64,000 bases of DNA from Agarilytica sp. (GTDB lineage Bacteria; Pseudomonadota; Gammaproteobacteria; Pseudomonadales; Cellvibrionaceae): contig JAWSUY010000001.1 of assembly GCA_033852175.1 (NCBI GenBank), positions 463,408 through 527,407 on the forward strand. The letters are read 5' to 3'. Below are positions 29,385 through 44,196 of this stretch, one piece after another; the stretch's first letter is position 1; every line of letters starts with the position of its first letter. The position numbers and the translations under genes were made by a program. Below the pieces are notes generated by a model that had not been told where the DNA came from, did not search any database, and saw nothing but the letters and a program-made list of their open reading frames with translations.

Positions 29385-29933
29385 TTAGAATAATTTCTTA
29401 TGAAACTCAGATCGCCTAGACACGGGAATGGTCGACAATAAATCCATCACTTCCCCCTCCTTATCAAACCTGTCCTTCGAATTACTATCCGAGGAAATAC
29501 CCTCCATAATGGAAAGAGCCTCCTGATAAACTGAATCAATTTCAGCTTCACCTAATTCCGATTTTTTCAGCGCGCCATTTGAATTAATGTTAGTTCCATC
29601 ATTAGATTCAGACAGATCATCGATCCTGTCCGAGAAGGACTCTAACTGGTATGCAATTTCGTTAATTTTATCCGCCAAATAATCTACCCCTCCTCCTTCA
29701 CATTGGTCAGACCTTCCAGAATCAGCCTGAACTTTGTTAGCAATGGATACAGAAATTATTTCCCTCTCATCCTTTTTATCGCTATGCATATCACGCGACA
29801 AAGAAACCTCATCACGGGGAAAATCATGGCCATGAGGCAAAAAATATTGAGCAGCCACTTGAACGCCAACCAGCGTAATAATTAGGGTTATAAACTGAAC
29901 TTTCGACACAGAAAAACTCCTTTTGATTTTCAT
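29385..29933 (-). CDS. Secreted acidic protein, hypothetical
   Basis: N-terminal hydrophobic signal/anchor; Asp/Glu/Ser-rich remainder. Confidence 0.45.
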   Translation of the reverse strand: MKIKRSFSVSKVQFITLIITLVGVQVAAQYFLPHGHDFPRDEVSLSRDMHSDKKDEREIISVSIANKVQADSGRSDQCEGGGVDYLADKINEIAYQLESFSDRIDDLSESNDGTNINSNGALKKSELGEAEIDSVYQEALSIMEGISSDSNSKDRFDKEGEVMDLLSTIPVSRRSEFHKKLF

Positions 29934-30540
29934 ATGAAACTATTTTTTCATTACCCGACGCACACGTGTAACGTACATACACACCAAACTTCCGTAAGCC
30001 CACAAATTACAGACGTCAAAATCTGTAATCTCAGAACAGAAACATTACAAGCTGTGTTAAAGATTAATTTATCGAGTTAATATTTTTAAGGATTATGCGT
30101 TGCAATAAAACGCATAAGCGAGAGGGGGTAGACCTGCATGTTTTTAAATGTTTTTTTACGGGAAACGGTAACTGTGCGTATAAAGTAGAGCCAATTGAAT
30201 TCAATCATTACTGGTCATTCCGTGATTAGTAGTCCATGTCAAAATATATTATTAGCAAACATGTTAACCATCAATATATTTATTGAACACTGCAACAAAA
30301 CGTGACCCAGCTCACGCTACGAACGCCCGAAAAACAATTGAGGCGTCAGACCTAGAGATTTTGATGACGACAATAACACTTACTATTTTTCGAACACTGC
30401 GAATAGAACATCAAAACCCAGTAAACGAGTAAGAGCCTAGATATAGGATAGTAATACTGAGAAATTAAATATGCGTGTAATTATTAGACAGCCCACAGAA
30501 AGTGGAACAACAACCGAAAGGAGATATTCGGAAAACATTA

Positions 30541-30577
30541 AAAAAGCGCGAACATTTTCGCGCTTGCTTAGTTTTTG
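30541..30577 (-). terminator. Rho-independent terminator ending the minus-strand cluster
   Basis: On minus strand GCGCGAA-AATG-TTCGCGC followed by TTTTTT. Confidence 0.65.
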
Positions 30578-30580
30578 ACC

Positions 30581-30835
30581 TTAAGAAATCAGCTCTTCAA
30601 GCTCTTGCATTTTCTCGGCTAAAGCGGTGTCTATTTCACTAGACCTGATTCGTGAAACGATATTCTTCAATACTCGCTTTTCGTTGTCGTCGATAACACC
30701 GTCTCGCTTGGCGATGTACATCAGGTCATTAAGTTCTTTCGCATCTAACTTACCATCTGCGAAACAATCTATTGAACGAAACGTAAGTTCTAAATAATCA
30801 CGACTTTCCATACTGTCTTCCTTTTTATTTATCAA
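30581..30835 (-). CDS. Small helical protein with TerB-like ADG...E motif, hypothetical
   Basis: 84 aa; FADGKLDAKELNDLMYIAKRDGVIDDNEKRVL resembles TerB/DjlA-N family motifs; start overlaps upstream gene by 11 nt. Confidence 0.35.
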   Translation of the reverse strand: MINKKEDSMESRDYLELTFRSIDCFADGKLDAKELNDLMYIAKRDGVIDDNEKRVLKNIVSRIRSSEIDTALAEKMQELEELIS

Positions 30836-31367
30836 AGTTTGTTGTTAAATAGTGTTTTATGTCTGGCATACTTTTATGCGAGTCCAGCCATTCCTTGAAT
30901 ATTTTCACTTTAGCAAAGTCATCTTCGCCAATTAATCGGCTAAAATGCTCATCCCATTTTTTTTGCTCGCGATCCTTGCGGATTTTCCGCTGCCAACTAT
31001 CGGTGAAAATGTTGGCCAGGTCGCCGTGTAGCTCCAAGCTTTTAAGTAATGTCCATTCACCTGAGTCTAGCCATGCTTCGTCGCAATGAGCACACAGATC
31101 GACGCGATTGTCCTGCTCCAGGCCTATTCGGTATTTGGTCATTAACTTACTGCATTTGGGGCATATTTTGGCGCTCTTACTATCTTCGGCTTCGACTGCA
31201 TCAACATCATGGCCACAAACCTCTGGGCCTCTTTGATTCTCAGCCCAATAGCGGTACTGAAATAGGGATAGCAATACGCCGGTACAAGATTCACAGCCAG
31301 CACCGACTAGGCCGTGCTCAACTTCCGTTGGTAATAGGGCTGCTGTTTTACAACTAGGGCATTTCAT
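30825..31367 (-). CDS. Double zinc-ribbon protein
   Basis: Two Cys4 ribbons (CPSCKT...CESCTG and CPKCSK...CAHCDE) followed by a basic helical tail. Confidence 0.5.
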   Translation of the reverse strand: MKCPSCKTAALLPTEVEHGLVGAGCESCTGVLLSLFQYRYWAENQRGPEVCGHDVDAVEAEDSKSAKICPKCSKLMTKYRIGLEQDNRVDLCAHCDEAWLDSGEWTLLKSLELHGDLANIFTDSWQRKIRKDREQKKWDEHFSRLIGEDDFAKVKIFKEWLDSHKSMPDIKHYLTTNFDK

Positions 31368-31438
31368 ATTCTTACCTCTTCTCTTTCCGCTTATGTGTCA
31401 GCGTTTTGTACTTATTCTTAATTTTGACTTCTTATGGC

Positions 31439-31996
31439 TTATTTCTTTCGAGAGGCTTTAGGGCGAGTTAGCACATAGGCCGCAAACACGCCCGCCAAAG
31501 CACCGAATAGATGCGATTCGAAAGAGACGTGAGGGTTTGACGGTAATACCCCCCAAATCATACCGCCATAAAATACGGCCACAAATACTGCGATCACGAT
31601 ATTGAGAAAACTACGCTGGAACCAAGCCACCGCTATCGAAAGGCTCCATAAACCAAAGATCCATCCACTGGCCCCGATATGTGTAGCCCCTGAGCGAGCG
31701 AATAACCATACCAAAATACCCGTTAAACAAATAATAATCGCACTGGCTTTGATAAAAAAGTTAGTGCCTCGAATGAGGCTCAAGGCACTAAACACAGCCA
31801 TCCCGACTAGGTTATTCATTAAATGCGACCAACTGCCGTGTAACCAAGGTGCCGTTATGATGTAGGGCAGGGTACTAATATCACCGGGACGAATACCGAA
31901 AACCGATAGTTGGTTGCTCAATACGACGTTTGCGATATGAATCACAATCATCGCTAAGCACGGGTAAACAATCAGTTTTACTTTTCTATCTAACAT
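31439..31996 (-). CDS. Rhomboid-family intramembrane serine protease
   Basis: 6-TM; catalytic GASGWIFG (GxSG) and downstream HLFGALAG histidine helix. Confidence 0.8.
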   Translation of the reverse strand: MLDRKVKLIVYPCLAMIVIHIANVVLSNQLSVFGIRPGDISTLPYIITAPWLHGSWSHLMNNLVGMAVFSALSLIRGTNFFIKASAIIICLTGILVWLFARSGATHIGASGWIFGLWSLSIAVAWFQRSFLNIVIAVFVAVFYGGMIWGVLPSNPHVSFESHLFGALAGVFAAYVLTRPKASRKK

Positions 31997-32006
31997 CTTT
32001 TACGTT

Positions 32007-35000
32007 TTAGGGATTGGGCTTTGGTTTAGGCTCTGATTTGGGTCTGGACTTGGTTTTGGCCTTTTCCAGATTTCCGGATTTTTGTTGCCTTTCCAAAGAG
32101 CGCAGCTGCTGTAAGACTTCTGTCATTTTTTCATGGGTACCTAAATCGATATCCAACTTTTTATCCATGCTGCGCACCAACGGGAAGATACTGCTTTCTA
32201 TGGTCGTCGCCAGTACACGTAGAAGCTTATCAATACCGGGCACCGGTTCGTTAACGACTTCAACGTTGGGCTCACTATCAATAATTGCCTGCTTAATTTC
32301 TCCTAGCGCCGAAAGAAAGACTTTTTCTTTTCCTTCATCACTTTGAAATTCTTTCTTAGCGATTTGCTTATTCAGACGATTCTGAAGCTTCGCTTCTCGC
32401 GAGATATGTGCGGTTGCATCTGCAATCGTTTGCACACTGCCGGCCAAATCCAATAATTGGCCAACCACTTTTTGACCTGTATCTGTCGAACCACCACCCA
32501 TAGCTTTATTGCGAATAAAATCTTCTTTTATTTTCGTCCAGCGTGCTTGCTCTACATCTGTCATGTTGCCGCGCAATTCAGCAAGCTTGAGTAGGTTTTC
32601 TTCTGCACCAGCTGTGAGTAGTTGTGCTTCACCAAGATAATGATCATGGATCAGCTGCATCATTTCTTCGTGGTTCATCACTGCCGAAATTTTCTCACCC
32701 ATTTTATTCATATTGCGATAGCTGCCTTGCAATTTGAATGAGGGTTCGGTTCGATATTCCTCTGCCTGAGCAGCCGATGCAATGTATTGTTTGTTGACTT
32801 TCAATACCACATCGCGAATCACGAACATCTTTTTCAGGATGTCGACAATTTCATTAACTTCAGCGCCGCTGTATTGGTGGCCGAAATCAGTGGTGGTAAC
32901 TTCTTTACCATTAGCCATATCGACAAATAGATAGACGTCTTTCATTTCCCGTGTTGCCAAGGGAGCCAGAACAGCGTTGGAGGTTAAACTGTTTTCTATA
33001 TAGCTAAGCTCGAACTGTTCATCCATTCCACCTAAAATATCGCCGAGGTTATAAATGTCCGCACGGTTTGCCAGCATGTCCGGAATTTTGAACATTTCGC
33101 CAGATTCGGTATAGGGGTTACCCGCCATTACCACACAGAATTTTTTGCCGCGCATATCATAGGTTTTGGTATCACCTCGCCATACACCTTCAATCCGGCG
33201 CGTACCATCACAAAGGGATATAAACTTCTGTAGAAATTCGGGGTGAGTGTGCTGGATATCATCGAGATACAACATGACGTTGTTACCCATTTCCAACGCG
33301 AGGTTTATTTTTTCAAGCTCTTGCTTCGATGTCGCATTTGAGGCCTGGGAAGGATCAAGCGAAAGAACATCGTGACCCAACGACGGGCAGTTGATCTTCA
33401 TAAAGATCAAACCCAAGCGGCTCGCGACATATTCCATCAATGTCGTTTTACCGTAGCCAGGAGGTGAAATCATCATCAACAAGCCCATCAAATCTGTACG
33501 CTTGGTATCACCAATCGTGCCCATTTGTTTAGCCAAGTTATCGCCAATAATGGGTAAGTAGGAATCGTTAATTAGCTTGTTGCGAACGAAAGAACTTAAC
33601 GGACGCGGCTTGAATTCCTCTAGCCTTAGAGATTTCCGTTCACGCGTCGACACTTCCTGCCGAATTTTGAGGTAGCTTTGGTAATTGGGAATGTGTGTAG
33701 CGACGTGATCATTTAAACGCATGATAAAATCGTCTAATGAGAATTGTAAGCATCGATTCTTGATGATCGCATGCTCTCCCATCAATCCTTCAACCGAGAT
33801 TTCCAATTCCGCTTCTGTCAGACGACGGTCAATGCGCTCATCTGCGTTGATCAGGCCAGCGGCTTCTGGGATATAGCGCGCTAATGATTCTAGCCCTTTT
33901 TCCGCGACCATTGCGCTCAACCATGCGCAGGATAGATTCCAACGTTCTGCTGGCCAACCCATCATTTTTTCTAATGCGGTTTGAAAACGACGCCAGCTTT
34001 CATCATCAAGAGAACGACGAAGCTCACTCGCCAATCGCTGAGCATATTTACTGCCGATAAATTCTGCTCGCTCTCGTCCAAGCTCTTGTACAAGGTAATC
34101 AGCTGCGCGAGCGATATCCAGCTCCGAAAGCTCCATTGGATGTATGGTGATAAATTCGTGCATTGCCGATCGAACTTCGATTGCCAATAATTTTTGTGCC
34201 TCATTACTCGAAAATACATTATGCATTTGCATCGCGGATTGAGCACGCTCAGTCCACGTTTCGAAAGTCAGACGTTTATTTTCGAGCTGTTCTGTAATTC
34301 GCTTTATATTGACCCAAAATACCTGAGCAAAGCCACGACAAAGCGGATCAAATCGAAGTAAGTCTGCCGACTGTAACGCAGGCATTAGTTTTTGGAGAAT
34401 TTTTACCGCATCGTAATCGTGAATGCCTTTCTCATAACCTTCTTTATAGCGAGGTCCAGCAAAGTCTTTTACGATTTTGCCGATTTCTTTATCGTCCAAA
34501 CACGCACTGTTCAGCACTTCGAGGTTTAAGCCATTCTGCTCTAACTCTGCTTGACGCAAAATACTATACGCAAGGTATTCAGCACGGTAAACAATGTCAC
34601 TTTCTGAGATAACACTAATATCCCAGTAGGGCTTTAATTCAAGTAATTCATCATCGATTATCGGCTCAAAGTAGTCAGTGCCGCTAAGGTGGAGATTCAG
34701 ATAACCCGCTCGTGGAATAATCGTAAGGTCGAGTTCTTGTCGGTTAACGCTAAATTTGTGACGTGGCCCAAGCCTAATCACCGCACCACCTTCTTCGTAT
34801 ATATCCGATTTATCACGAAGGATGCGAATGGCTTGCTCTTTTACACTTTTAAAACGCGCGTCAATATCATCTGCTTTAACCGAGGCGTTCAATTCGCCAA
34901 GGCTTGCAACAAATTCTCGAATCTTCATGACCAGAGGATCAGCGGCAAAGTAAGTGTTTAATTGATCGACTTCAGTGAACTTGGATGATCGCCTCTCAAT

Positions 35001-37355
35001 GCTCTTAATCGCTCGCTCGGCAGCATCTGTAATGGACTGTGCTTTGCGTTGTTGCTGATCGATTAATTGTTGTTTATGCGATTCAAATACTTCGTAAATC
35101 TCGTCACGTTTGCCAATGATATCTGTTAAAAACTGGTCAAAACCACTGAACTGAGATTCTAATTCTTCTAGCTGTGCCAGTAAGCGTGACATTTGCTCAT
35201 CGCAGCTGTCGGGTGTATTGGCAAGGCTCAAGGCATTGGTGATGCTCTGTGAAAATAATTTGAACTGGGCCGAAAACTCAGCAGTCGCTTCTTCGCTGCC
35301 AATGCCTTTTTGTTTATGCTTGGCATTCGCTTTGACTTGGTTCAGTTTTGAATAGACTTCTGATATCGAATCGACGATACGCGTACGCACCGTCGCATCA
35401 TTTACTTTTAGCGTCGATAACAATTCTGAAAGCAAGTCTAGACCTGAAGCTGTTGCTTCGATCACTTCAATCAAAGGCTTCAGCTCAGCTACTGTACTGG
35501 CTGCTTCTAAGTCTTGATTAATATTGGAAATTTTATCAAGGTAAGGCGATAGGGCGTCTTCATTCCCCAAAAACGTGACGGTTTTTTCACTAAGATCTTG
35601 CTGAAGAGAAAGAAGCTCTTCTTCCATTTTTTCAATACGCGATACATCGATGTAGCGAAATTCTTTTATCGTCGCAAGATGGCCACGGGCATGACGTATT
35701 TTATCCAACGATATTACGTAATCCTCTGCCGTTTCCCAGGATGCGGAGCGGACTTCTGTCTCCAAACTGTCCAGTTTTCCCTCAGCATCTTTCAATGCTT
35801 TTACTGATTGCTGCCGGATACTCTGAACTTTTTCAAATTCGTCAATAGCCAACTCTGCTGTATTAGAGATCTCCTTCAATACACCAGGAATATCACCAAG
35901 CTCACCTTCTGACACCCAATAGTGATCGTCGAATATTTTGAGTGACGCTTTACTGAGCTCTTCATAAAGTCTTACAGAGACCGATTGATTATCAATGGCT
36001 CGGCACACACTGTATAAGTCAGAAACACCTCGTACGAGTTGAGCATTACCGATACGGCCATAAAAGGTTTTGCTTTCTGGTTGGTTACTGGCGAACTCGT
36101 CACTTACGTAAGGCGTTACCCAGATTTGCATGGGGTGAACGCGGGTTGGCTCATCGTCTGCAGAAAACAAAACAAGCATGCCGTTTTCCGCTAAAGCATA
36201 ACCATGACCATATATAGGGTTTTGAATTTTTTTGTTAATGACGTTGTAACCGAGCAACGCTACCGTGCCTTTCACTTGCTCGTAGAAAATAAAGAATACA
36301 TCTTCACCATTGGGTGAACGAATCGATCTTTTAAATTTCAAACCTTCATGCTCGTCACCAAAGGTTTTGTACTCACCGGACTGCAAATAGTATCCACCGG
36401 GGAAAATAATCCCATGGTCCTCTGGTAGCTGTACGCAAGACGCACCGATGGCATCAATCCGTATGACACTTTCCGTTATGATATTAAACACAAAGAAACG
36501 CCATTGCTCTTCTTGATAAGGAAGAATTTTAATAAGAATGAGATCGCCAAGGCGTGCGTAGCTGTACTCACCATCGTCAAGCGATTGCGTTTTATTGTCT
36601 ACAGGTTCCCGATATATCCCTAGGCCATCTTGCGTATTATCTTCAATTTTTACGGTTAAATCACCGCCGAGACATTCAACAAACACGCTATCAAGAATAT
36701 TAAGATGTGCATGTTTACCATTAACGATATTTTCGCGTGTACATTCGATCCATTCGAAATCATATTCCGGCGGTAATTGTATGTCGCGCTCACCACGGTT
36801 ATCGATATACTCTAATGACCCATCGGGGGAAACAGCCCAGCGAAACACGCGAATATCTTCTATGCGCTCACCGATTTGAAAGCCCATCAAAAGCTTACCG
36901 TCTTTGATGGTTAGTTCTTGTAACTTAGTTTGCTTGTAGTAGTGATAGAGCTCTTGAAAATCCTTAACGAAACGAACGTCAGATAAAAATGTGGTCGTTT
37001 CGTCGACTTCTTGTAAGTCAAAATTATCGTCTTTCTCCGTCAGAGAAAAAATAGAGAAGACGTCTTCGACTTGGGTTTCTTTTTTTAGACCAATAAAAAC
37101 GTTGTAACCGAATAGAAGATAATTACCCACTTGAACAATATCACGTGCTACACAATTATTTTCTGTTCTAATACGCACGCGCGCAGCCACGTTCATATCG
37201 GCGCTGCCGAATTCCTCTAACCGCGATTGATTCAATTTTGCAACTTGGGTATTGAGTTCTCGTCCTCTTTCCAGAAGCCGTTTTTTTATAACTTCATAAG
37301 CCCCTCCTTCGGCTACTGCAGCATCCACTATATTTTCAGCAACGGCTTCTGACAT
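32007..37355 (-). CDS. Giant (1782 aa) multidomain protein with MoxR/AAA_5-like AAA+ ATPase core (residues about 1280-1480) and extensive coiled coils
   Basis: Walker A ISPPGYGKTTLM (DNA about 33437-33460), Walker B VMLYLDDIQH (about 33249-33280), then MAGNPYTESGEMFKIPDMLANRADIYNL, which parallels the MoxR ATQNP...LPEAQLDRF sensor/arginine region. About 1250 aa of N-terminal sequence has no recognised domain. Lys/Pro-rich C-terminal tail; 10 bp from rhomboid and 17 bp from the Gly-zipper gene. Confidence 0.7.
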   Translation of the reverse strand: MSEAVAENIVDAAVAEGGAYEVIKKRLLERGRELNTQVAKLNQSRLEEFGSADMNVAARVRIRTENNCVARDIVQVGNYLLFGYNVFIGLKKETQVEDVFSIFSLTEKDDNFDLQEVDETTTFLSDVRFVKDFQELYHYYKQTKLQELTIKDGKLLMGFQIGERIEDIRVFRWAVSPDGSLEYIDNRGERDIQLPPEYDFEWIECTRENIVNGKHAHLNILDSVFVECLGGDLTVKIEDNTQDGLGIYREPVDNKTQSLDDGEYSYARLGDLILIKILPYQEEQWRFFVFNIITESVIRIDAIGASCVQLPEDHGIIFPGGYYLQSGEYKTFGDEHEGLKFKRSIRSPNGEDVFFIFYEQVKGTVALLGYNVINKKIQNPIYGHGYALAENGMLVLFSADDEPTRVHPMQIWVTPYVSDEFASNQPESKTFYGRIGNAQLVRGVSDLYSVCRAIDNQSVSVRLYEELSKASLKIFDDHYWVSEGELGDIPGVLKEISNTAELAIDEFEKVQSIRQQSVKALKDAEGKLDSLETEVRSASWETAEDYVISLDKIRHARGHLATIKEFRYIDVSRIEKMEEELLSLQQDLSEKTVTFLGNEDALSPYLDKISNINQDLEAASTVAELKPLIEVIEATASGLDLLSELLSTLKVNDATVRTRIVDSISEVYSKLNQVKANAKHKQKGIGSEEATAEFSAQFKLFSQSITNALSLANTPDSCDEQMSRLLAQLEELESQFSGFDQFLTDIIGKRDEIYEVFESHKQQLIDQQQRKAQSITDAAERAIKSIERRSSKFTEVDQLNTYFAADPLVMKIREFVASLGELNASVKADDIDARFKSVKEQAIRILRDKSDIYEEGGAVIRLGPRHKFSVNRQELDLTIIPRAGYLNLHLSGTDYFEPIIDDELLELKPYWDISVISESDIVYRAEYLAYSILRQAELEQNGLNLEVLNSACLDDKEIGKIVKDFAGPRYKEGYEKGIHDYDAVKILQKLMPALQSADLLRFDPLCRGFAQVFWVNIKRITEQLENKRLTFETWTERAQSAMQMHNVFSSNEAQKLLAIEVRSAMHEFITIHPMELSELDIARAADYLVQELGRERAEFIGSKYAQRLASELRRSLDDESWRRFQTALEKMMGWPAERWNLSCAWLSAMVAEKGLESLARYIPEAAGLINADERIDRRLTEAELEISVEGLMGEHAIIKNRCLQFSLDDFIMRLNDHVATHIPNYQSYLKIRQEVSTRERKSLRLEEFKPRPLSSFVRNKLINDSYLPIIGDNLAKQMGTIGDTKRTDLMGLLMMISPPGYGKTTLMEYVASRLGLIFMKINCPSLGHDVLSLDPSQASNATSKQELEKINLALEMGNNVMLYLDDIQHTHPEFLQKFISLCDGTRRIEGVWRGDTKTYDMRGKKFCVVMAGNPYTESGEMFKIPDMLANRADIYNLGDILGGMDEQFELSYIENSLTSNAVLAPLATREMKDVYLFVDMANGKEVTTTDFGHQYSGAEVNEIVDILKKMFVIRDVVLKVNKQYIASAAQAEEYRTEPSFKLQGSYRNMNKMGEKISAVMNHEEMMQLIHDHYLGEAQLLTAGAEENLLKLAELRGNMTDVEQARWTKIKEDFIRNKAMGGGSTDTGQKVVGQLLDLAGSVQTIADATAHISREAKLQNRLNKQIAKKEFQSDEGKEKVFLSALGEIKQAIIDSEPNVEVVNEPVPGIDKLLRVLATTIESSIFPLVRSMDKKLDIDLGTHEKMTEVLQQLRSLERQQKSGNLEKAKTKSRPKSEPKPKPNP

Positions 37356-37372
37356 CGATCTATTCCTTAAAT

Positions 37373-37621
37373 TTATTCTGAGTCGGCAGAGTGAATCTGC
37401 ACCTCTTTTTCGGATCCTTTACTGGAGTCAGCAGGGCTAACTTCAGTGTATTGCTCAAGCGCCCAAGCGATGGTGGCGCCGAGACCGGCCCCGACCATCG
37501 TGTTTTTTACCATGTCGCCTTTGGTAGCGCCTAACAGCGCTCCAATGGCAGCGCCGATACCGGCACCTTTTTTGATATCGTCTTGGGAGATGCTTTCGAG
37601 CAGGTCAGTGATTTCTTTCAT
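37373..37621 (-). CDS. Small glycine-zipper protein
   Basis: GAGIGAAIGALLGATKG...VGAGLGATIAWA GxxxG-type zipper repeats; 82 aa. Confidence 0.5.
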   Translation of the reverse strand: MKEITDLLESISQDDIKKGAGIGAAIGALLGATKGDMVKNTMVGAGLGATIAWALEQYTEVSPADSSKGSEKEVQIHSADSE

Positions 37622-37651
37622 TAGAATTCCTCTGTCTGGTTTTATGCTCGA

Positions 37652-39625
37652 TTAGCTGACGTCTTTTTCTTTGCTAGAGGATTCCATCACTTTGCCTAAT
37701 ATCGCTTGTATGGTTCCGCTTTTCTCAGCTAAGCCGTCAATTGCTTTACCAATGGATAAGGATTTAGCAAAGTTGTTAAAGAAGTGATCTTCACCACCGA
37801 CAATATCAATTTTCGCTTTTTCCAGAGCTGTTGCGAGTACTTCTGCATTTTCTTTCGCAATTTCTTTACCTGCATCAAGAGTCGCAAGCGCTTCTTTAAG
37901 TGCAGTCTCTAATCCCATACGGAATTCTTCATGCTCACGTGCATCAGTACTCATGCTGTTCATCGCCTGGAACTTATCAACAAGGCCGTCGGCTTCCGCT
38001 TTAAACTTCTGACGAATAACTTCAGCTTCAGCAAAACCGGTTTCATTGGTCGCCTTCGCTTCAGATGTACCTTTAAGCGCAACAACATCTGCTTCTGCGG
38101 TACCTACGTTAGCAACAACACTTGCTTCCGATTCACCTTTAGCTGCAACAACGCGCGCTTCAGACTCACCTTTAGCAGCAACAACATGTGCTTCGGCTAG
38201 ACCTTCTTTTTCAAGCGCATCCGCTTTGGCTTCTTGTACTTTCGCATCCGCAAGGCCTGGGGCAGCTCGTTCTGCTTGTGTACCTTCTGCCAGTTTTTTC
38301 TTCGCATCGGCTTCTTTTGCAGAAGCTTCTAAGTTAGCTTGCGCTAGAACCGTGATTTCACCCGCTTTATGCTTCGCTGATAGCTCTTCAGATTCTGCGC
38401 GCTTAACTTCTTTGACTTTAGCTTCTTCTGCTTTTGCTTCGGCTTCTAATACTTGCACTTGCTTCAGTCGATCCGCTTCAGAAACTTCTCGAACTTCTTT
38501 GATTTTCTCTTCTTCGATTGCGACAGATTTGTCCACAACAATTCGTTCACGAATAACGTTAGCAATTTCTTTACGTTCGACTTCAACAGCTTTTTCAGCT
38601 TCGATACGTTGCAGCTCAACTTCACGTTCACGTGATACGATTTCGAGATCTCTTGCCCGTGTTACTTTTTCAATTTCAATAACAACAGCGCGCTGACGAT
38701 TTTGCTCAGCAACTTCAATTTCACGTTTTTGATTTTCGGTTTGAACTGCAAGTTCTTGATCAGAAGCAATCGTTGCGCTTTCAGACTTGAGACGCTCCTC
38801 TTCTTGCACTCGAATAGTTTCAGCATCTTCTCTAGCTTGAACAGTTGCAACTTCGCGCCCCTGCCTTGCTTCTGCATCCGCTTGTTGACGCTCTAGCTCC
38901 AACATAGACTCAATAGTTTCGACATTTTTCTTTTTGATAGCGAGTTCTTCATCACGCTCAAAGACATTAGTTTTTACATTTTGCGCTGCGGTTAGTTCGG
39001 TAATTTTCCGAATACCTTCAGCATCGAGAATATTATTGGGATCAAGCTGGCTTTTCGGCGTCTGCTCTAGGTAATCAATCGCAACATCTTCAAGGATATA
39101 GCCATTGAGATCATCACCAATGACTTCAATAATTTTGTCTCGGAATTTTTGTCGATCTTCAAACAAATTCACAAATTCAATTTGTTTTCCAACCGTTTTC
39201 AATGCTTCTGAAAATTTTGCGTTAAATAGGTCGTTAACCGCCTGTTTGTCTGACGCTCTTCTAGCACCTAATGACTTCGCCACTTTCAACACATCATCAG
39301 CCGTTTCGTTAACCCGTAGGTAAAACGCTACCGTGATATCAGCACGCATATTATCCAGGCAGATTAGGCCGTCTTGACCGCGTCTATCCACTTCCATGGT
39401 GATAAGCGATATACGCATAAGTTCTTTTTTATGAATAACGGGGTAAACAAAAGTCCCGGTGAAAAACACCTTCGGCTTGGACCCCATGTCATTTTTGATT
39501 AGTGCAACTCCTTGCTCTACCTTGACGTAAAAGAATTTGAACCACATGGGAATGGCCAAAACCATCAGCAAAATAACTCCACTGAAAACGAATAGACCAC
39601 CCATTTGTTCGATAAACTGAGACAT
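37652..39625 (-). CDS. yqiK: Flotillin-family SPFH/band-7 protein (YqiK-like)
   Basis: N-terminal TM, SPFH domain, and long Glu/Ala/Lys/Arg-rich coiled coil with 11-aa tandem repeats; architecture collinear with E. coli YqiK. Confidence 0.8.
   Translation of the reverse strand: MSQFIEQMGGLFVFSGVILLMVLAIPMWFKFFYVKVEQGVALIKNDMGSKPKVFFTGTFVYPVIHKKELMRISLITMEVDRRGQDGLICLDNMRADITVAFYLRVNETADDVLKVAKSLGARRASDKQAVNDLFNAKFSEALKTVGKQIEFVNLFEDRQKFRDKIIEVIGDDLNGYILEDVAIDYLEQTPKSQLDPNNILDAEGIRKITELTAAQNVKTNVFERDEELAIKKKNVETIESMLELERQQADAEARQGREVATVQAREDAETIRVQEEERLKSESATIASDQELAVQTENQKREIEVAEQNRQRAVVIEIEKVTRARDLEIVSREREVELQRIEAEKAVEVERKEIANVIRERIVVDKSVAIEEEKIKEVREVSEADRLKQVQVLEAEAKAEEAKVKEVKRAESEELSAKHKAGEITVLAQANLEASAKEADAKKKLAEGTQAERAAPGLADAKVQEAKADALEKEGLAEAHVVAAKGESEARVVAAKGESEASVVANVGTAEADVVALKGTSEAKATNETGFAEAEVIRQKFKAEADGLVDKFQAMNSMSTDAREHEEFRMGLETALKEALATLDAGKEIAKENAEVLATALEKAKIDIVGGEDHFFNNFAKSLSIGKAIDGLAEKSGTIQAILGKVMESSSKEKDVS
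38040..38210. repeat. About 33-bp tandem repeats inside the flotillin gene (encode AKGESEA(R/S)VVA repeats)
   Basis: Repeated ...CACCTTTAGCAGCAACAAC(A/G)... units visible on the plus strand. Confidence 0.6.
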
Positions 39626-39647
39626 TACTTACTCCTTAAAATTAGAC

Positions 39648-40301
39648 TTAATCACAAAAATCGGACTCTGAAACTACCTTATAAATATTTTTACTTTCTA
39701 CATATTCGAGAAGGACAATACGATCACCCCTCTCAAAAACTTCGTCCTTATAGGACCTAACCTTTACCAGCAATCCAGCTCCGCCATCTTCGACCCTAGC
39801 CTCACCAAATTTTTTATCAACACGGCCCGTTCGAACAATTCCCACTTGGCCAACTATTGTTTTTTCTATATGTTGATCCGCCAACTTAAAAAGTTTGCGT
39901 AAAGGCTTAATCACTTGAGCAGTCACAATAATGGCCGCATAAAGGGCCGCTATAAATACAGCAATCCCCACAAATGGTTCAAAAAAGTCGGGCACAAAAG
40001 GAAATCCAAAATAAACAATGTAATAACTGAATAACCAACCCGTTGTTGATATGAGTGAAACAATGATCGGCAAAGGAACGCCATTGAGGCCCAGCTTCAT
40101 AGCTAAACCGGCAACGCCATTAACCCCCACATCGCCATCAGAAATGTCAGTATCGAGCACATCAATATCGATCACGCCCAAAAATGATATTAGCCAGTAG
40201 AAAACGCTGACAATAAGGAAAACACTAAATATAACGGTCGGAAAAGATGTGACTATGGAATAGAAACCGTCCATTTTGTCAGTGAGTAATATTGTAAACA
40301 C
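39648..40301 (-). CDS. yqiJ: NfeD-like membrane protein (YqiJ-like) partner of flotillin
   Basis: N-terminal multi-TM region and C-terminal OB-fold-like soluble domain (QVGIVRTGRVDKKFGEARVEDGGAGLLVKV); sits immediately upstream of flotillin, as in yqiJK. Confidence 0.65.
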   Translation of the reverse strand: MFTILLTDKMDGFYSIVTSFPTVIFSVFLIVSVFYWLISFLGVIDIDVLDTDISDGDVGVNGVAGLAMKLGLNGVPLPIIVSLISTTGWLFSYYIVYFGFPFVPDFFEPFVGIAVFIAALYAAIIVTAQVIKPLRKLFKLADQHIEKTIVGQVGIVRTGRVDKKFGEARVEDGGAGLLVKVRSYKDEVFERGDRIVLLEYVESKNIYKVVSESDFCD

Positions 40302-40653
40302 CTTAGTCCTCCTTTTTCTTTTGATACGATTATTTTGAGGCTAGCTTTCTAGCTAGAGCTAAACGCTCCTCGAAGTAATCCGCGATTTATTGTGGGATCT
40401 AATCCCAATCTGTAGCTTCGAAACATGCCTATGAATGGCCGCTAGCAAAATTTCCTTTTTTATTCTGTCTATCCCTTCTCGCTTTTTCTATCTTATGCCT
40501 TCCTTACCCTGCATTTTGTTCACTCCCTCGCTCCCTATCCGCCCTCTCCAGCCTTAAGCCTCAAGGGACACTTCACGCCTGACCATGCAGAACCATCTGG
40601 AGAAAAAGAGCAACAGCATAGCCTACGACACCCACGAAGCATACCCTCTAATT

Positions 40654-40977
40654 TCAGTTACGCTTCGCTATTTTTACTGCTGTACCATAGGCAAGCAGCT
40701 CTGCCGCCCCCCTCATCATTGAGGCGGTGGTAAACTTCACGCCAACGATGGCATCTGCCCCCATTATCGTGGCATCGACTATCATTCGATCAACCGCCTG
40801 CTCGCGTGACTCCGCTATCATTTTTGTGTATTCGGTAATCTCTCCACCGATAATCATCCGCAGGCCCGCAATAATATCTTTACCAACATGCCTCGCACGG
40901 ATGGTATTACCCTTAACTAAGCCAAGGGTTTCCGAAATGTCCAAATCGGCAAAATTGTCCTGCGTAGTTATCAGCAT
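40654..40977 (-). CDS. ybjQ: YbjQ/UPF0145 (DUF74) family protein
   Basis: 107 aa, collinear with E. coli YbjQ (GNTIRARHVGKDIIAGLRMIIGGEI..Y......R..A..RM...A..MGADAIVGVKF......G..E..AYGTAVK). Confidence 0.8.
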   Translation of the reverse strand: MLITTQDNFADLDISETLGLVKGNTIRARHVGKDIIAGLRMIIGGEITEYTKMIAESREQAVDRMIVDATIMGADAIVGVKFTTASMMRGAAELLAYGTAVKIAKRN

Positions 40978-41189
40978 TATTTTTCCACCTTTTTTGAATA
41001 GTAATCATCTTCCTTGTTCGCCAATCGCTCTTTGACAACCTTGGTCATAAACACGCCAATACTCAGCAAGAGCAGCAAACCAACAAAACCGTAGGGTAGC
41101 AGTGCCAACAAACCCAAAAACATCGCCACCAGATAAGAACCCACAACCATGATCAAAAGTGCATATCCAACTTTTTCATATTTATCCAT
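40977..41189 (-). CDS. Small 2-TM membrane protein
   Basis: 70 aa, two hydrophobic helices, Lys/Glu-rich tail; stop overlaps the ybjQ start. Confidence 0.45.
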   Translation of the reverse strand: MDKYEKVGYALLIMVVGSYLVAMFLGLLALLPYGFVGLLLLLSIGVFMTKVVKERLANKEDDYYSKKVEK

Positions 41190-41412
41190 ATCGACCTCCC
41201 AGCTTTTCCAGTAAGTGATTCATCCATGAATCCTTCAACATCCTGTAACAGCTATCCTTACTAAACCGCTCCTTTGAGGATTTCTCCCTTAGCTTCCTTG
41301 CTACCAACACGGTAAATAGGCAGTCCATTTTCCTATTCACACCCGCAATGCCTCCTGACAAATACGGTTCCTCCTTGATGCCCTTGCATCCATTTCCTCA
41401 TTCCGCAATCCT

Positions 41413-42096
41413 TTACTTATTCTTCAAACGTTCAAGCACTTTTTCAGCACTCGATCCGTTAGGCGCTATCCCAGCGGCTTTTAGTTTTTCATCCAATGAA
41501 TCTTCAGTTCCGTCCTGGGAAATTTCACTTGCCGCATTAATTTTTGCTTGCTTTAGATCCTGCTTTTCTTTGATCCGATCTAACGAGTCCATCGCTGTGC
41601 GCAATTTGGAATTGGTGCCGCTGTGGCGCTCAGCTACGGCCGACTGTGCCCGCAGCACATTCTCTGTCGCTTTGACCGTATCCACTTGCTGCTTCAATCG
41701 CCGAATATTTTGTTCCGCATTTTTTATTGCCGTGCGCAGGTCATTTGCATTTGATGCAAAACTTTTTCCTGCTTCACTTTCTGTTGCAAATTGATTTTCA
41801 AGATCAGCAACCTTTTGCGCCACCTCCATTGCCAACGTGTCATCTCCTTTTTTAAGCGCCTGACCCGCATAGCCCTCATACTCATCAATATTCGCCTTCA
41901 GCTGGTCGGCCTTTTCTTCAGCCAACTTTTGCCGCGCAATAATCGACGCAAGCCCATCTTTAGACTGCCTTAACTCTTCAGTTGCATCTCGGACCTCTTG
42001 ATCCAAAATTCGTAATGCCTGCGAATCTATCGCGGCTTCTCCGGCTTCGTTCAATCCGCCGCGTAATGCTGTTACCAGTTTTGACCACATGTTCAT
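41413..42096 (-). CDS. yjfJ: PspA/IM30-family (ESCRT-III superfamily) protein, YjfJ-like
   Basis: Helical coiled-coil protein collinear with E. coli YjfJ/PspA, including C-terminal LDEKLKAAGI...SAEKVLERLK. Start ATG 42096 has an AGGA RBS; the track ORF is 5'-extended. Confidence 0.8.
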   Translation of the reverse strand: MNMWSKLVTALRGGLNEAGEAAIDSQALRILDQEVRDATEELRQSKDGLASIIARQKLAEEKADQLKANIDEYEGYAGQALKKGDDTLAMEVAQKVADLENQFATESEAGKSFASNANDLRTAIKNAEQNIRRLKQQVDTVKATENVLRAQSAVAERHSGTNSKLRTAMDSLDRIKEKQDLKQAKINAASEISQDGTEDSLDEKLKAAGIAPNGSSAEKVLERLKNK

Positions 42097-42106
42097 TTCC
42101 TTTTTC

Positions 42107-42739
42107 TCATTTCGTCGCTTGTTTTTGCAGGAGCAAATATTCGCTATAGGCTTCTGCGGCTTGAATAACATTTGAAGCCAAGACTTCAATTTCAAAAATT
42201 ACGTTCGATAGAATCGAGGTTGCGCTCAACGCACCGAACATTTGGTAATAGGCTTTGCCGTCTCCCAGCACGTCTAAGCTGATTGTCGATAACGGAAAGA
42301 ATTTATGGGTTCGCAATACGGCATCATTAAAGCCCTGCGTATCTGCCACCTCATCTTCAGACCAAAGCACGGCTTCCACCAATATCTGCTCACCCGATAC
42401 GGTTAAGAACAGGGGAAGATCACCTTGATCATGCATCACAAAATGCACCGCTGGGGCCACACCATCGATCAATTCAATGGTTGCCTTATCCCCGTCAAAG
42501 AGGGGATCTACCGCTAACGCATCGAACAAACTTTGTGTCGTCCACTTTTTCATTTCTGTCATTTCCAGTACTCCATTTTCCAATAAGGTTTCATCAAATT
42601 CTGCACGCAGAAGCTTTTCAAATTTCGCTAACCACTTTGCATTCTCTGGCAGAATCCACGCTTCTTTCTTTACGAGGCCCAACTCTCTGAGCCGCCGCCG
42701 GTATTCACGCTGATAATGTGCTGATGTCTTCTCTTTCAT
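42107..42739 (-). CDS. Hypothetical protein co-operonic with the PspA-family gene (position analogous to E. coli yjfI)
   Basis: 210-aa ORF ending 10 nt before the PspA start; no motif recognised by eye. Confidence 0.4.
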   Translation of the reverse strand: MKEKTSAHYQREYRRRLRELGLVKKEAWILPENAKWLAKFEKLLRAEFDETLLENGVLEMTEMKKWTTQSLFDALAVDPLFDGDKATIELIDGVAPAVHFVMHDQGDLPLFLTVSGEQILVEAVLWSEDEVADTQGFNDAVLRTHKFFPLSTISLDVLGDGKAYYQMFGALSATSILSNVIFEIEVLASNVIQAAEAYSEYLLLQKQATK

Positions 42740-42757
42740 GTGACCTACCTTATAGCC

Positions 42758-42815
42758 TTACATGTAATGCGTCAATAATAATTACATGTAACGCGCAAAC
42801 ATTATTACATGTAAC
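42758..42815. promoter_or_regulatory. Three copies of the perfect 10-bp palindrome TTACATGTAA (42758-42767, 42783-42792, 42806-42815); putative operator/UAS of the psp-like cluster (and/or divergent hemH)
   Basis: Read directly in the sequence; spacing 25 and 23 bp; located 19-76 bp upstream of the minus-strand start at 42739. Confidence 0.5.
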
Positions 42816-43071
42816 ATTTGATATTACGAAATCGCCCATCGCTAACATCTATATATCCGCTATCTTGTACATTTTTAGGGCTATACAGAGCCATCTGAAC
42901 ATTGATTTGGCAAAAATCCCTAAAGCACTCCCCCGTACCCGTAATTTCACATAGACTTCAGCTGCTTTAACACTGCAACGTAATAAACTAGCCCCACCCA
43001 GAAAGGTATGCCTGCTGAGGCTCGACTTCTGGACGGTGCTAACTCTGTGATTTGGAAAGGGCAGGTACTCT

Positions 43072-44196
43072 GTGGCTTATAAAGATTCTTCATATTTCAC
43101 CCACACACAGCAAGATAAAGTCGGCCTGTTGATCACCAACCTCGGCACTCCCGATGCGCCGACGACAAAGGCTGTGCGACGGTACCTGAAAGAATTTTTG
43201 TCTGACCCTCGCGTGGTGGAGATTCCCCGCTTGATCTGGTGGTTCATGCTCAACGTTGTCATTTTGAACATCAGACCCAGCCGCTCTGCCAAGGCCTACC
43301 AAAAGGTCTGGAAGGAGGAGGGTTCTCCACTCGCTGTGCATACCGAAAAGCAGGCCCGCTTATTACATGACAAGCTAAAGCAAAGTTGGGGCGACGACAT
43401 TTTAGTGGAGCATGGGATGCGCTACGGATCTCCATCTATAGAGAGTGCTCTGCAAAAACTGATAGAGCAGGGAGCACGCAAGTTATTGGTCATGCCCATG
43501 TACCCTCAGTATTCCGGCTCGACCACCGCTTCAACATTCGATGCCATCGCTAAGGATTTTGGTTCGCGTCGATTGCTGCCCGAATTCAGGTTTATCAATA
43601 ACTATCACGATTTTGGCCCTTACATTGAAGCGCTTGCGACTTCGGTTCGACAATATTGGGAAGACAATGGCCGCGCGCAGATGCTGTTGTTTTCGTATCA
43701 CGGCCTACCTATGAATTTTCTGCATAACGGCGACCCTTATCATTGCCATTGCCATAAGACCTCTCGGTTACTGGCTGCGGCGCTAGACCTCAAAGATGAC
43801 GAGTGGACTACTGCATTTCAATCTCGTATGGGTCGCGAACCTTGGTTGCAGCCGTATGCTAATGAGACGTTGAAGTCCTTCCCCGGAAAAGGCATTAAGT
43901 CAGTGCAGGTTGTGTGCCCTGGATTTCCGGCAGACTGTCTCGAAACCATTGAAGAAATTGGAATGGAAAACCGTGAATATTTTATGGAAGCAGGCGGGGA
44001 GAAGTATCAATACATTCCCTCACTGAACGATCAAGACATCCACATTGATGCATTGGCTCAACTGGCCGAGAAACATTTGGGCGGATGGCGAGAAGACTTT
44101 GCGCCTAGCTCCAGCTCTACAACAGCCTCAGGCTGCCCAGCATCACGATCTGAATTATTTAAAGCTCACGGCTATAACCAGAAGAGTGAAACTTAA
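43072..44196 (+). CDS. hemH: Ferrochelatase
   Basis: Collinear with E. coli HemH (LGTPDAPT, RYLKEFLSD.RVV, MRYGSPS, PMYPQYS, GFPADCLETIEEI); about 50-aa C-terminal extension. Confidence 0.85.
   Translation: MAYKDSSYFTHTQQDKVGLLITNLGTPDAPTTKAVRRYLKEFLSDPRVVEIPRLIWWFMLNVVILNIRPSRSAKAYQKVWKEEGSPLAVHTEKQARLLHDKLKQSWGDDILVEHGMRYGSPSIESALQKLIEQGARKLLVMPMYPQYSGSTTASTFDAIAKDFGSRRLLPEFRFINNYHDFGPYIEALATSVRQYWEDNGRAQMLLFSYHGLPMNFLHNGDPYHCHCHKTSRLLAAALDLKDDEWTTAFQSRMGREPWLQPYANETLKSFPGKGIKSVQVVCPGFPADCLETIEEIGMENREYFMEAGGEKYQYIPSLNDQDIHIDALAQLAEKHLGGWREDFAPSSSSTTASGCPASRSELFKAHGYNQKSET

Follow-up and report, generated by a model that had tools for sequence, protein, structure and literature searches.

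Whether a run of same-strand genes for membrane-associated proteins forms one system, and of what kind, is the question raised by a 64,000-nucleotide (nt) stretch of an Agarilytica sp. genome (contig JAWSUY010000001.1, positions 463,408 to 527,407; hereafter, the window). On its minus strand, at 30581-42739, a listing of open reading frames (ORFs), an independent gene call and family scans located 11 genes, among them genes for PspA, NfeD, flotillin, a giant AAA+ ATPase and a rhomboid protease. A first-pass annotation, made from the sequence alone, had proposed an undescribed system of membrane repair, remodelling or abortive infection. Our comparison with other genomes indicates that the region is very probably the orthologue of Pseudomonas aeruginosa bacABCDEF, a bac-type envelope-stress operon. 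Systems of this kind are already known, though poorly understood; that of the window is a variant with further partner genes. We read the locus as a self-repressed envelope/membrane-stress module that works by the mechanism proposed below, and give this reading as a whole a probability of about 0.7; the individual mechanistic steps are more tentative, each of them an even bet at best. The main added value lies in a conserved operator and N-terminal module of BacA and in a quantitative census of the accessory genes.

Five genes of the run have named counterparts in the bac operon, as follows.

42107-42739, minus strand: BacA/YjfI-family DUF2170 protein of 210 amino acids (aa), assigned by Pfam, NCBIfam and a structure model.
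41413-42096, minus strand: YjfJ-type PspA_IM30 protein (ESCRT-III superfamily), 227 aa, assigned by Pfam and BLASTP.
39648-40274, minus strand: NfeD/YqiJ-like membrane protein, 208 aa, the BacC orthologue, assigned by profile comparison.
37652-39625, minus strand: flotillin/YqiK-like SPFH protein, 657 aa, the BacD orthologue, assigned by profile comparison.
32007-37355, minus strand: giant AAA+ ATPase with DUF3686, DUF7902 and AAA domains, 1782 aa, the BacE/PA3728 orthologue, assigned by Pfam.

In tblastn searches, these five core proteins mapped in order onto the P. paraeruginosa locus (L038), with identities of 49-65% for BacA, PspA and flotillin, 56% for the giant ATPase and 42% for NfeD. 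The same five genes stand in the same order (BacA, the PspA protein BacB, BacC, BacD and BacE) in bacABCDEF (PA3732-PA3727), and the palindromic operator and promoter frame described below are likewise shared with L038. A PLD gene, presumably the sixth gene, bacF, directly follows the giant ATPase gene in L038, whereas no PLD homologue was found by tblastn anywhere in the window. The window differs further in that no σ54 site was found and in that it adds genes for a rhomboid, a double Zn-ribbon protein and a Gly-zipper protein as well as an inserted 2TM-ybjQ pair (TM, transmembrane); moreover, the gene for the small acidic protein p84 stands at the end of the run rather than between the genes for flotillin and the giant ATPase.

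The bac cluster ('biofilm-associated cluster') was first described in PMC2587700 and was extended to bacABCDEF in PMC10948618. In P. aeruginosa, the six genes of the operon are co-transcribed, as determined by reverse-transcription PCR; in a bacA mutant, BacB-F over-accumulate 6-13 fold (PMC10948618). The same paper reports a crystal structure of BacA and mentions a BacA-BacB interaction as unpublished. PA3731 accumulates on osmotic shock, and mutants show biofilm and virulence phenotypes (PMC2587700). Ravi et al. 2024 (mSystems, PMC11237479) describe a neighbourhood of CesT/Tir(YjfI), PspA, band-7/flotillin, AAA+ and YqiJ/YuaF genes, along with PspA-less abbreviated versions; our census, given next, reproduces this gene set. 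The word rhomboid has 0 occurrences in their main text, and the accessible passages contain no double Zn-ribbon or TerB-like partner for the operon and no BacA module or operator. Since the core of the locus corresponds to the published bacABCDEF operon and to the neighbourhood of Ravi et al., the system cannot be called undescribed.

The giant ATPase has at least 4736 homologues. A scan with one genome per species returned at least 570 stretches encoding a relative of this protein, of which the best 80 loci were analysed; 68 loci with enough flanking DNA (complete loci) formed the base of the census. NfeD and flotillin genes lay upstream of the giant ATPase gene in 68/68 complete loci, and BacA and PspA genes preceded the NfeD-flotillin-ATPase genes in 48/68, the PspA-less loci numbering 20. 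A rhomboid gene was located directly 3' of the ATPase gene in 30 of the 68 loci, a PLD (HKD) gene after the ATPase gene in 27 (28/80 in the tblastn set, including L038), a p84 gene in 20 and a double Zn-ribbon gene in 14. The gene for p84, a small TerB/EF-hand-like protein, was confined to PspA-bearing loci (20/48, compared with 0/20 PspA-less loci; Fisher p 3e-4, uncorrected for phylogeny) and occupied three different operon positions among the loci, lying between the flotillin and giant ATPase genes in Pseudomonas. Rhomboid genes were also commoner in the presence of PspA (25/48 versus 5/20). With the exception of 2TM-ybjQ and the Gly-zipper gene, gene order and strand were kept across Gammaproteobacteria, Zetaproteobacteria, Burkholderiales and one Gemmatimonadota metagenome-assembled genome.

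Because the same order recurs in all complete loci of other species, the arrangement is, by this comparison, far beyond chance. Judged by gene content, the invariant core consists of NfeD, flotillin and a giant soluble AAA+ ATPase; the BacA+PspA pair is an upstream addition, found in ~70% of loci, and the downstream additions come in variable combinations of a rhomboid and/or PLD, a double Zn-ribbon protein and a TerB/EF-hand-like protein. The first-pass annotation had staked its proposal on ATPase homologues not being always found apart from flotillin and PspA genes. Flotillin and NfeD accompany the ATPase in every complete locus and PspA in 48, and the conserved functional neighbourhood that had been suggested around the ATPase is supported by these counts. 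The earlier description of the ATPase as inserted into the run does not hold, as it belongs to the invariant core.

We then examined the region upstream of bacA, which contains the following element.

42747-42814, minus strand: predicted promoter/operator of the cluster, with three exact TTACATGTAA palindromes.

The TTACATGTAA copies lie at 42805-42814, 42782-42791 and 42758-42767, directly upstream of bacA, and are the sole exact copies in the 64-kb window, in which 0.05 would be expected by chance. Between a -35-like TTGACG (42770-42775) and a -10-like TAAGGT (42747-42752) lies a 17-nt spacer with the proximal palindrome in it, and the -10-like element ends 7 nt ahead of the bacA ATG. When up to one mismatch was allowed, the palindrome was found no more than 130 nt upstream in 47 of the 50 loci whose BacA carries the N-terminal module described below, and at least two copies were found in 37 of them. 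In these module-bearing loci the copies hold fixed positions with a spacing of 22 base pairs (bp); the other 1.87 Mb of the loci contain 26 copies, which corresponds to an upstream enrichment of ~1000-fold. The frame is constant across loci, P. paraeruginosa included: palindrome, TTGAC, a 17-nt spacer with the second palindrome, TAnnnT, 6-8 nt and ATG. Such an arrangement is that of a nearly leaderless σ70-type promoter that would be occluded by a repressor. A scan for σ54 -24/-12 elements upstream of bacA, the 2TM gene and nfeD gave nothing convincing (best 6/12), and no conserved σ54 site was detected in the 50 loci.

In the window BacA, the conserved N-terminal module (SAHYQREYRRRLRELGLVKKEAWILPE...) spans residues 1 to ~48, and a DUF2170 CesT-like domain spans residues 65-202. 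The protein matched Pfam DUF2170 with 164 bits and the NCBIfam BacA equivalog with 293.9 bits (cut-off 300), and it is 32% identical to E. coli YjfI. Its AlphaFold2 (AF2) model (pLDDT 80) had as top Foldseek match the P. aeruginosa BacA structure 8Q8O (TM-score 0.91-0.94, 47% identity). The module, of ~45 aa, is highly conserved in most bac-type loci (SSAHYQREYRRRLREQGLVKKEVWILPE...) and is missing from E. coli YjfI (133 aa) and from the crystallised 139-aa P. aeruginosa construct (8Q8O). Where the DUF2170 protein lacks the module, as in loci L060 and L082 and in E. coli yjfI, the palindromes are absent. Because the operator palindromes co-occur with the BacA N-terminal module, we infer that BacA is a DNA-binding autorepressor. 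Autorepression of this predicted kind would account for the loss of repression observed when bacA is mutated in P. aeruginosa.

A profile of the module found 152 representative proteins, including free-standing ones of 44-58 aa (P0304-P0373; …ERQR.YRERLR..GLVK.EVWI.PE…). These free-standing proteins matched the MazE-like family PF11455 down to E 5e-4 with 20.5 bits (cut-off 22), and they apparently constitute an independent, uncharacterised small domain family. The comparison suggests that the crystallised and older annotated BacA (PA3732) is N-terminally truncated, and the published P. aeruginosa σ54 site may lie inside the true, longer bacA ORF. As far as the searchable literature shows, the operator and module are new and have apparently been overlooked. 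The BacA operator provides a concrete, testable regulatory mechanism obtained from cross-locus comparison, and since P. aeruginosa bac mutants are biofilm-defective and attenuated, its regulation is of some medical relevance.

The PspA protein of the window matched Pfam PspA_IM30 with 158 bits (cut-off 33.9). In BLASTP searches it aligned with E. coli YjfJ over its full length (34% identity, E 1e-32) but gave a partial match only with E. coli PspA (E 0.001), and by these matches it belongs to the YjfJ subfamily. No Pfam match was obtained for the window flotillin and NfeD proteins, and PDB sequence searches gave no usable match for flotillin (single sequence and profile) or NfeD (profile). The flotillin family profile aligned with E. 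coli YqiK over 408 columns (hhalign probability 99.9, E 3e-34), and the NfeD family profile aligned with E. coli YqiJ (probability 90.5, E 1e-6). Through profile-profile comparison alone, the flotillin label of the first-pass annotation is thus confirmed and the NfeD label supported. Among the orthologues, 2/33 flotillins matched Pfam Band_7 or Flot and 8/32 NfeD proteins matched YqiJ_N. The window flotillin combines an N-terminal TM segment (residues 11-29) with an SPFH domain and an extended, E/A-rich coiled coil, and the NfeD gene adjoins its gene.

These matches also bear out the earlier remark that genes scattered in E. coli, namely yjfIJ and yqiJK, are united here. In E. coli, yjfIJ(KLMC) and yqiJK encode homologous proteins, but the two pairs are unlinked and have no giant ATPase or rhomboid partner, and yjfIJ is linked to polyamine-related genes. 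In B. subtilis, pspA-ydjGHI (samGHI) encodes PspA together with an SPFH protein that recruits PspA to the membrane (PMC8581546), and YdjG is described in PMC11237479 as a two-Zn-ribbon protein of the pspA operon; yuaF-floT pairs NfeD (YuaF) with flotillin, as in the window. However, the B. subtilis operons have no AAA+ ATPase, rhomboid or BacA-type regulator, their proteins are not orthologous to those of the window, and the window Zn-ribbon protein is soluble.

The giant ATPase consists of DUF3686 (residues 33-479; Pfam 675 bits), the coiled-coil DUF7902 (residues 600-683; 99 bits), a helical middle, one AAA+ module and a helical C-terminal part, and no TM segment was found in it. Walker A (G1300-T1304, with K1303/T1304), Walker B (D1365/D1366), the sensor-1 residue N1413 and R1431 are invariant. 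Ravi et al. (PMC11237479) report a beta-propeller for the DUF3686 region. Pfam AAA and AAA_5 score equally on the protein (about 28-30 bits each), AAA_3 reaches E 0.12, and PDB sequence searches with the single sequence and with the profile gave no usable match. Foldseek searches with a poor model of the ATPase returned a generic AAA+ fold with mixed matches (MCM, Clp, Skd3, NorQ and RuvB). No VWA gene, the usual MoxR partner, is present in the cluster, and the MoxR-like label given earlier is plausible but unproven. No aromatic-hydrophobic-Gly pore-loop motif could be read in the stretch from Walker A to Walker B.

Databases widely name this protein 'DNA repair ATPase/protein'. The idea that it is a DNA-repair ATPase derives only from the Pfam description of DUF3686 ('ATPase involved in DNA repair') and from the names copied from it. 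Pfam and PDB searches detected no nuclease, helicase or DNA-binding domain in the ATPase, and the conserved neighbours are all membrane proteins or proteins associated with membranes. No paper mentioning DUF3686 was found in the searchable literature, where PA3728 occurs only in gene lists. As judged from its domains and its conserved membrane-protein neighbourhood, the label is without support, and we give a role in DNA repair practically no credence.

PspA belongs to the ESCRT-III superfamily, and, as in ESCRT-III/Vps4, the window PspA is encoded with a dedicated AAA+ ATPase; by analogy, this pairing suggests ATP-driven polymer remodelling. Assignment of the ATPase to the Vps4-type classical clade is nevertheless unsupported: it lacks an MIT domain and any Vps4 match, its weak model places a beta-hairpin before the sensor-1 strand, and its link to flotillin is tighter than that to PspA. 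We know of no dedicated ATPase for bacterial PspA (ESCRT-III) or for flotillins, both of which are intensively studied, and to our knowledge the giant ATPase family has never been studied. The operon family encodes such an ATPase beside both proteins, and the window contributes a rhomboid-bearing variant of it.

Three genes follow the giant ATPase gene, and a hairpin closes the cluster.

31439-31996, minus strand: rhomboid, a minimal six-TM intramembrane serine protease, 185 aa, assigned by Pfam.
30825-31367, minus strand: double Zn-ribbon protein, 180 aa, assigned by Pfam.
30581-30811, minus strand: acidic protein p84, 76 aa, with sub-threshold TerB/EF-hand matches.
30544-30565, minus strand: intrinsic-terminator-like hairpin with a 9-bp stem and a T-run, which closes the cluster.

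The rhomboid matched its Pfam family with 68.4 bits (cut-off 22.6), and in the 30 cluster-linked rhomboids its HxxxxHLxxN and GASG motifs and the TM6 His show conservation of at least 90%. It is not a rhombosortase, as its TIGR03902 score of 38.8 falls short of the cut-off (84). The soluble double Zn-ribbon protein has two TFIIB-type Zn-ribbons (two stretches matched Zn_ribbon_TFIIB, E 6e-10), and its C-terminal half is helical. In p84, the twin DGxxDxxE motifs are invariant, and the invariant residues are D, E and G. It matched TerB (E 0.0076, 17 bits; cut-off 24.4) and EF-hand_7 (E 0.003) below threshold, and its family profile gave only weak EF-hand matches in the PDB (calmodulin, E 0.07); the earlier TerB-like label is not established by these scores. 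The rhomboid, Zn-ribbon protein and p84 are common in the family and were not found described for a bac-type operon in the searchable literature, where we also found no paper tying a rhomboid to PspA or flotillin operons.

Some variation was seen at this end of the operon. In L017, L044 and L057 (Pseudomonadales/Cellvibrionaceae, ~15.7-16.8 kb), a gene for an MscS-like channel (MS_channel_2nd, E 2e-4) lies between the p84 and Zn-ribbon genes; the rhomboid gene is shifted upstream on the opposite strand in L017 and L044, and none was seen nearby in L057. Inside the rhomboid coding sequence of the window, at 31761-31791 on the minus strand, there is a strong terminator-like hairpin with a 13-bp stem followed by a T-run, which could be a chance feature or an internal attenuator.

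The presence of a rhomboid raises the alternative of an SPFH-protease quality-control hub, in which a flotillin/NfeD cage encloses the rhomboid, the AAA+ protein extracts or delivers substrates, and PspA/BacA is a stress add-on. NfeD, flotillin and the ATPase occur together in all 68 complete loci, 20 of which are PspA-less; a catalytically intact rhomboid gene lies directly downstream in 30 of them, and likewise for three of four independently sampled rhomboid homologues. The pairing of SPFH proteins with proteases is also recurrent: HflK/C-FtsH, stomatin-STOPP and SLP2-PARL-YME1L (PMC7966987, PMC11667180). In mitochondrial SLP2-PARL-YME1L, an SPFH scaffold, a rhomboid and an AAA+ protein form one unit, a likeness that for the window, known from its genes, is one of analogy only. 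On the other hand, the rhomboid is missing from over half of the loci and is commoner in the PspA-bearing ones, and the window ATPase has neither a protease domain, unlike its mitochondrial counterpart, nor a recognisable aromatic pore loop. This alternative overlaps our own reading, and taken by itself we consider it unlikely.

In the self-repressed stress module that we favour, BacA would bind the palindromes via its MazE-antitoxin-like N-terminal module and repress the operon, and its CesT-like chaperone domain would bind a partner, most likely PspA. Membrane stress would draw PspA to the membrane and thereby relieve repression, in a partner switch analogous to PspA-PspF. Flotillin, anchored by NfeD, would assemble into an SPFH scaffold or cage at the inner membrane, with the YjfJ-type PspA polymerising on damaged membrane; the giant ATPase, which has a long helical arm after the DUF3686 region, would spend ATP on assembling, remodelling or recycling this scaffold. 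As far as co-occurrence tells, its most likely client is flotillin/NfeD, to which it is linked universally, rather than PspA, to which it is linked in only part of the loci. The rhomboid would cleave a membrane protein within the flotillin domain, and in other species PLD would act on a lipid or other phosphodiester substrate. In a bolder version, the core would be an ATP-driven builder and dismantler of flotillin cages, coupled to PspA polymers in the BacA/PspA version, with the rhomboid or PLD inside. BacA would be the switch, a hitherto unrecognised fusion in which an antitoxin-like DNA-binding module that reads the TTACATGTAA operators is joined to a T3SS-chaperone-like sensor domain, and p84, with its twin DGxxDxxE motifs, could let the system sense membrane damage through divalent cations (Ca2+). 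We regard that version as a long shot; if true, it would be the first dedicated motor for bacterial SPFH/ESCRT-III assembly and a bacterial counterpart of the SLP2-PARL-YME1L hub.

Several observations weigh against the self-repressed module and its mechanism. The BacA N-termini matched PF11455 only below threshold (E 0.03-0.06); in the model, the BacA module is helix-extended-helix with pLDDT 55-73, and a DNA-binding fold could not be demonstrated. For P. aeruginosa, a σ54 promoter and regulation through protein-protein contacts, rather than operator binding, have been proposed (PMC10948618). The AF2 model of ATPase residues 1225-1782 is poor (pLDDT 56, core 70-87), so that its AAA+ clade and pore loops are not resolved by it. 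The rhomboid is not obligatory: 38/68 loci lack it, and the rhomboid homologue of Teredinibacter turnerae is located away from the cluster. The 2TM-ybjQ insertion, with gaps of 223 and 379 nt, may split the operon. Finally, the census loci are phylogenetically related, so their counts overstate independence.

We also considered anti-phage or abortive-infection defence: infection would be detected by the ATPase, and the cell would then be killed or arrested by membrane effectors (rhomboid, PLD, 2-TM and Gly-zipper proteins). Two lytic phages up-regulate 17 genes in P. aeruginosa, PA3728-PA3732 among them (PMC12041424), and the cluster resembles many defence systems in that a large NTPase stands beside small membrane proteins and a PLD or protease. 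Classical Psp genes, however, are also phage-induced, as a membrane-stress response, and the published mutant phenotypes concern biofilm, osmotic stress and virulence (PMC2587700). PADLOC returned only low-scoring coiled-coil noise, with PspA matching JetC/LmuB. The locus adjoins hemH and a PBP1 gene, a synteny kept in related genera, and it is broadly and vertically conserved in Pseudomonas and Cellvibrionaceae rather than part of a variable island. Given the housekeeping context and the lack of any real PADLOC match, the abortive-infection label of the first-pass annotation is not sustained, and we judge a defence role very improbable.

Three further genes and one non-coding element of the run are confined to the window and its closest relatives.

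40977-41189, minus strand: 2-TM membrane protein, 70 aa, from the ORF listing and hydropathy.
40654-40977, minus strand: YbjQ (UPF0145), 107 aa, assigned by Pfam YbjQ_1.
37373-37621, minus strand: Gly-zipper protein, 82 aa, with a Pfam match below cut-off.
41217-41262, minus strand: conserved non-coding block of 46 nt with the palindrome GATTCAT-GG-ATGAATC, ~28 nt upstream of the 2-TM gene.

Two TM helices are visible by eye in the 2-TM protein, of which a crude hydropathy scan flags one (residues 10-28). Its gene overlaps ybjQ by 1 nt, the stop codon lying on the ybjQ start, and YbjQ matched Pfam YbjQ_1 with 116.8 bits (cut-off 23). The pair was found by tblastn in 0/80 other loci; it occurs at the same place only in L084 and L085, the two relatives nearest to the window (ATPase identity 80% and 75%), and is absent in Thalassocella (71%). 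The 46-nt block is 79-94% identical in L084 and L085, more conserved than the proteins, and is non-coding because these relatives carry frame-breaking indels in it; it is probably a separate promoter/operator, and at present a candidate one, for 2TM-ybjQ. The pair looks like a later, recent insertion with its own control element and may be functionally unrelated to the operon. These findings do not support the membership that the first-pass annotation had given YbjQ. The Gly-zipper protein scored 25.3 bits against Pfam Gly-zipper_OmpA (cut-off 27). Small genes equivalent to it at the flotillin-ATPase junction occur only in L084, L085 and L086, and at this position most loci have a gap of 60-200 nt without an ORF, with the p84 gene standing there in Pseudomonas; tblastn with the Gly-zipper protein found 0/80 loci, in part a sensitivity problem.

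These insertions are where a chance juxtaposition of independent units, with no functional coupling, has its best case: 2TM-ybjQ is missing from the other loci, has its own upstream block and is flanked by two long gaps, and the Gly-zipper gene is clade-specific. For the other genes, order and strand are conserved across phyla and gaps measure 10-30 nt, and the P. aeruginosa genes are co-transcribed and co-regulated (PMC10948618). Chance is already refuted for the core and would be true only for 2TM-ybjQ; as an account of the locus, its probability is minimal.

The layout of the run agrees in most respects with the first-pass annotation. All named genes were found on the minus strand at the place indicated, and the intergenic distances from nfeD through the rhomboid gene are 22, 30, 17 and 10 nt, in keeping with the 10-30 bp first noted. 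The terminator noted at the end of the cluster corresponds to the predicted hairpin and T-run at 30565-30544, which start 15 nt past the last stop codon, and no terminator was predicted in the intergenic gaps ahead of position 30565. The number of genes is 11 rather than twelve. A 59-aa ORF at 41182-41361, tried as the twelfth gene, was rejected, as relatives show frame-breaking indels. The long gaps on the two sides of the 2TM-ybjQ pair measure 223 nt (from pspA) and 379 nt (to nfeD). An Rfam search of 29800-43200 at E <= 1, both long gaps included, found no RNA family, and σ70-like matches at 40255 and 40213 were disregarded because these positions are inside nfeD.

Other observations concern the flanks and junctions of the locus and its relatives. 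The best homologue matches were from Agarilytica, Thalassocella, Saccharophagus and Teredinibacter, which puts the source organism near Agarilytica within the Cellvibrionaceae. In Thalassocella blandensis (L086:666-2852), a gene for a 728-aa LemA+GIDE membrane protein lies directly upstream of bacA on the same strand, and this protein may be a further accessory partner. In L055 (7.9-10 kb), L065 and L076, 2-3.4 kb of unrelated genes separate the flotillin and giant ATPase genes; the L055 insert consists of two copies of a ~306-311-aa ORF, and this junction tolerates insertions. The 379-nt spacer between ybjQ and nfeD (40275-40653, minus strand) is purine-rich, with no ORF, Rfam match or conservation, and at its position L084 (80% identical) has a gene for an 83-aa protein with a Zn-ribbon and a TM segment (L084:2456-2707). 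The GC skew of the plus strand is strongly negative over 38000-42000 (-0.21 to -0.27), owing to the purine-rich spacers and to the likewise purine-rich minus-strand sequence that codes for the E/K/A-rich coiled coils of PspA and flotillin.

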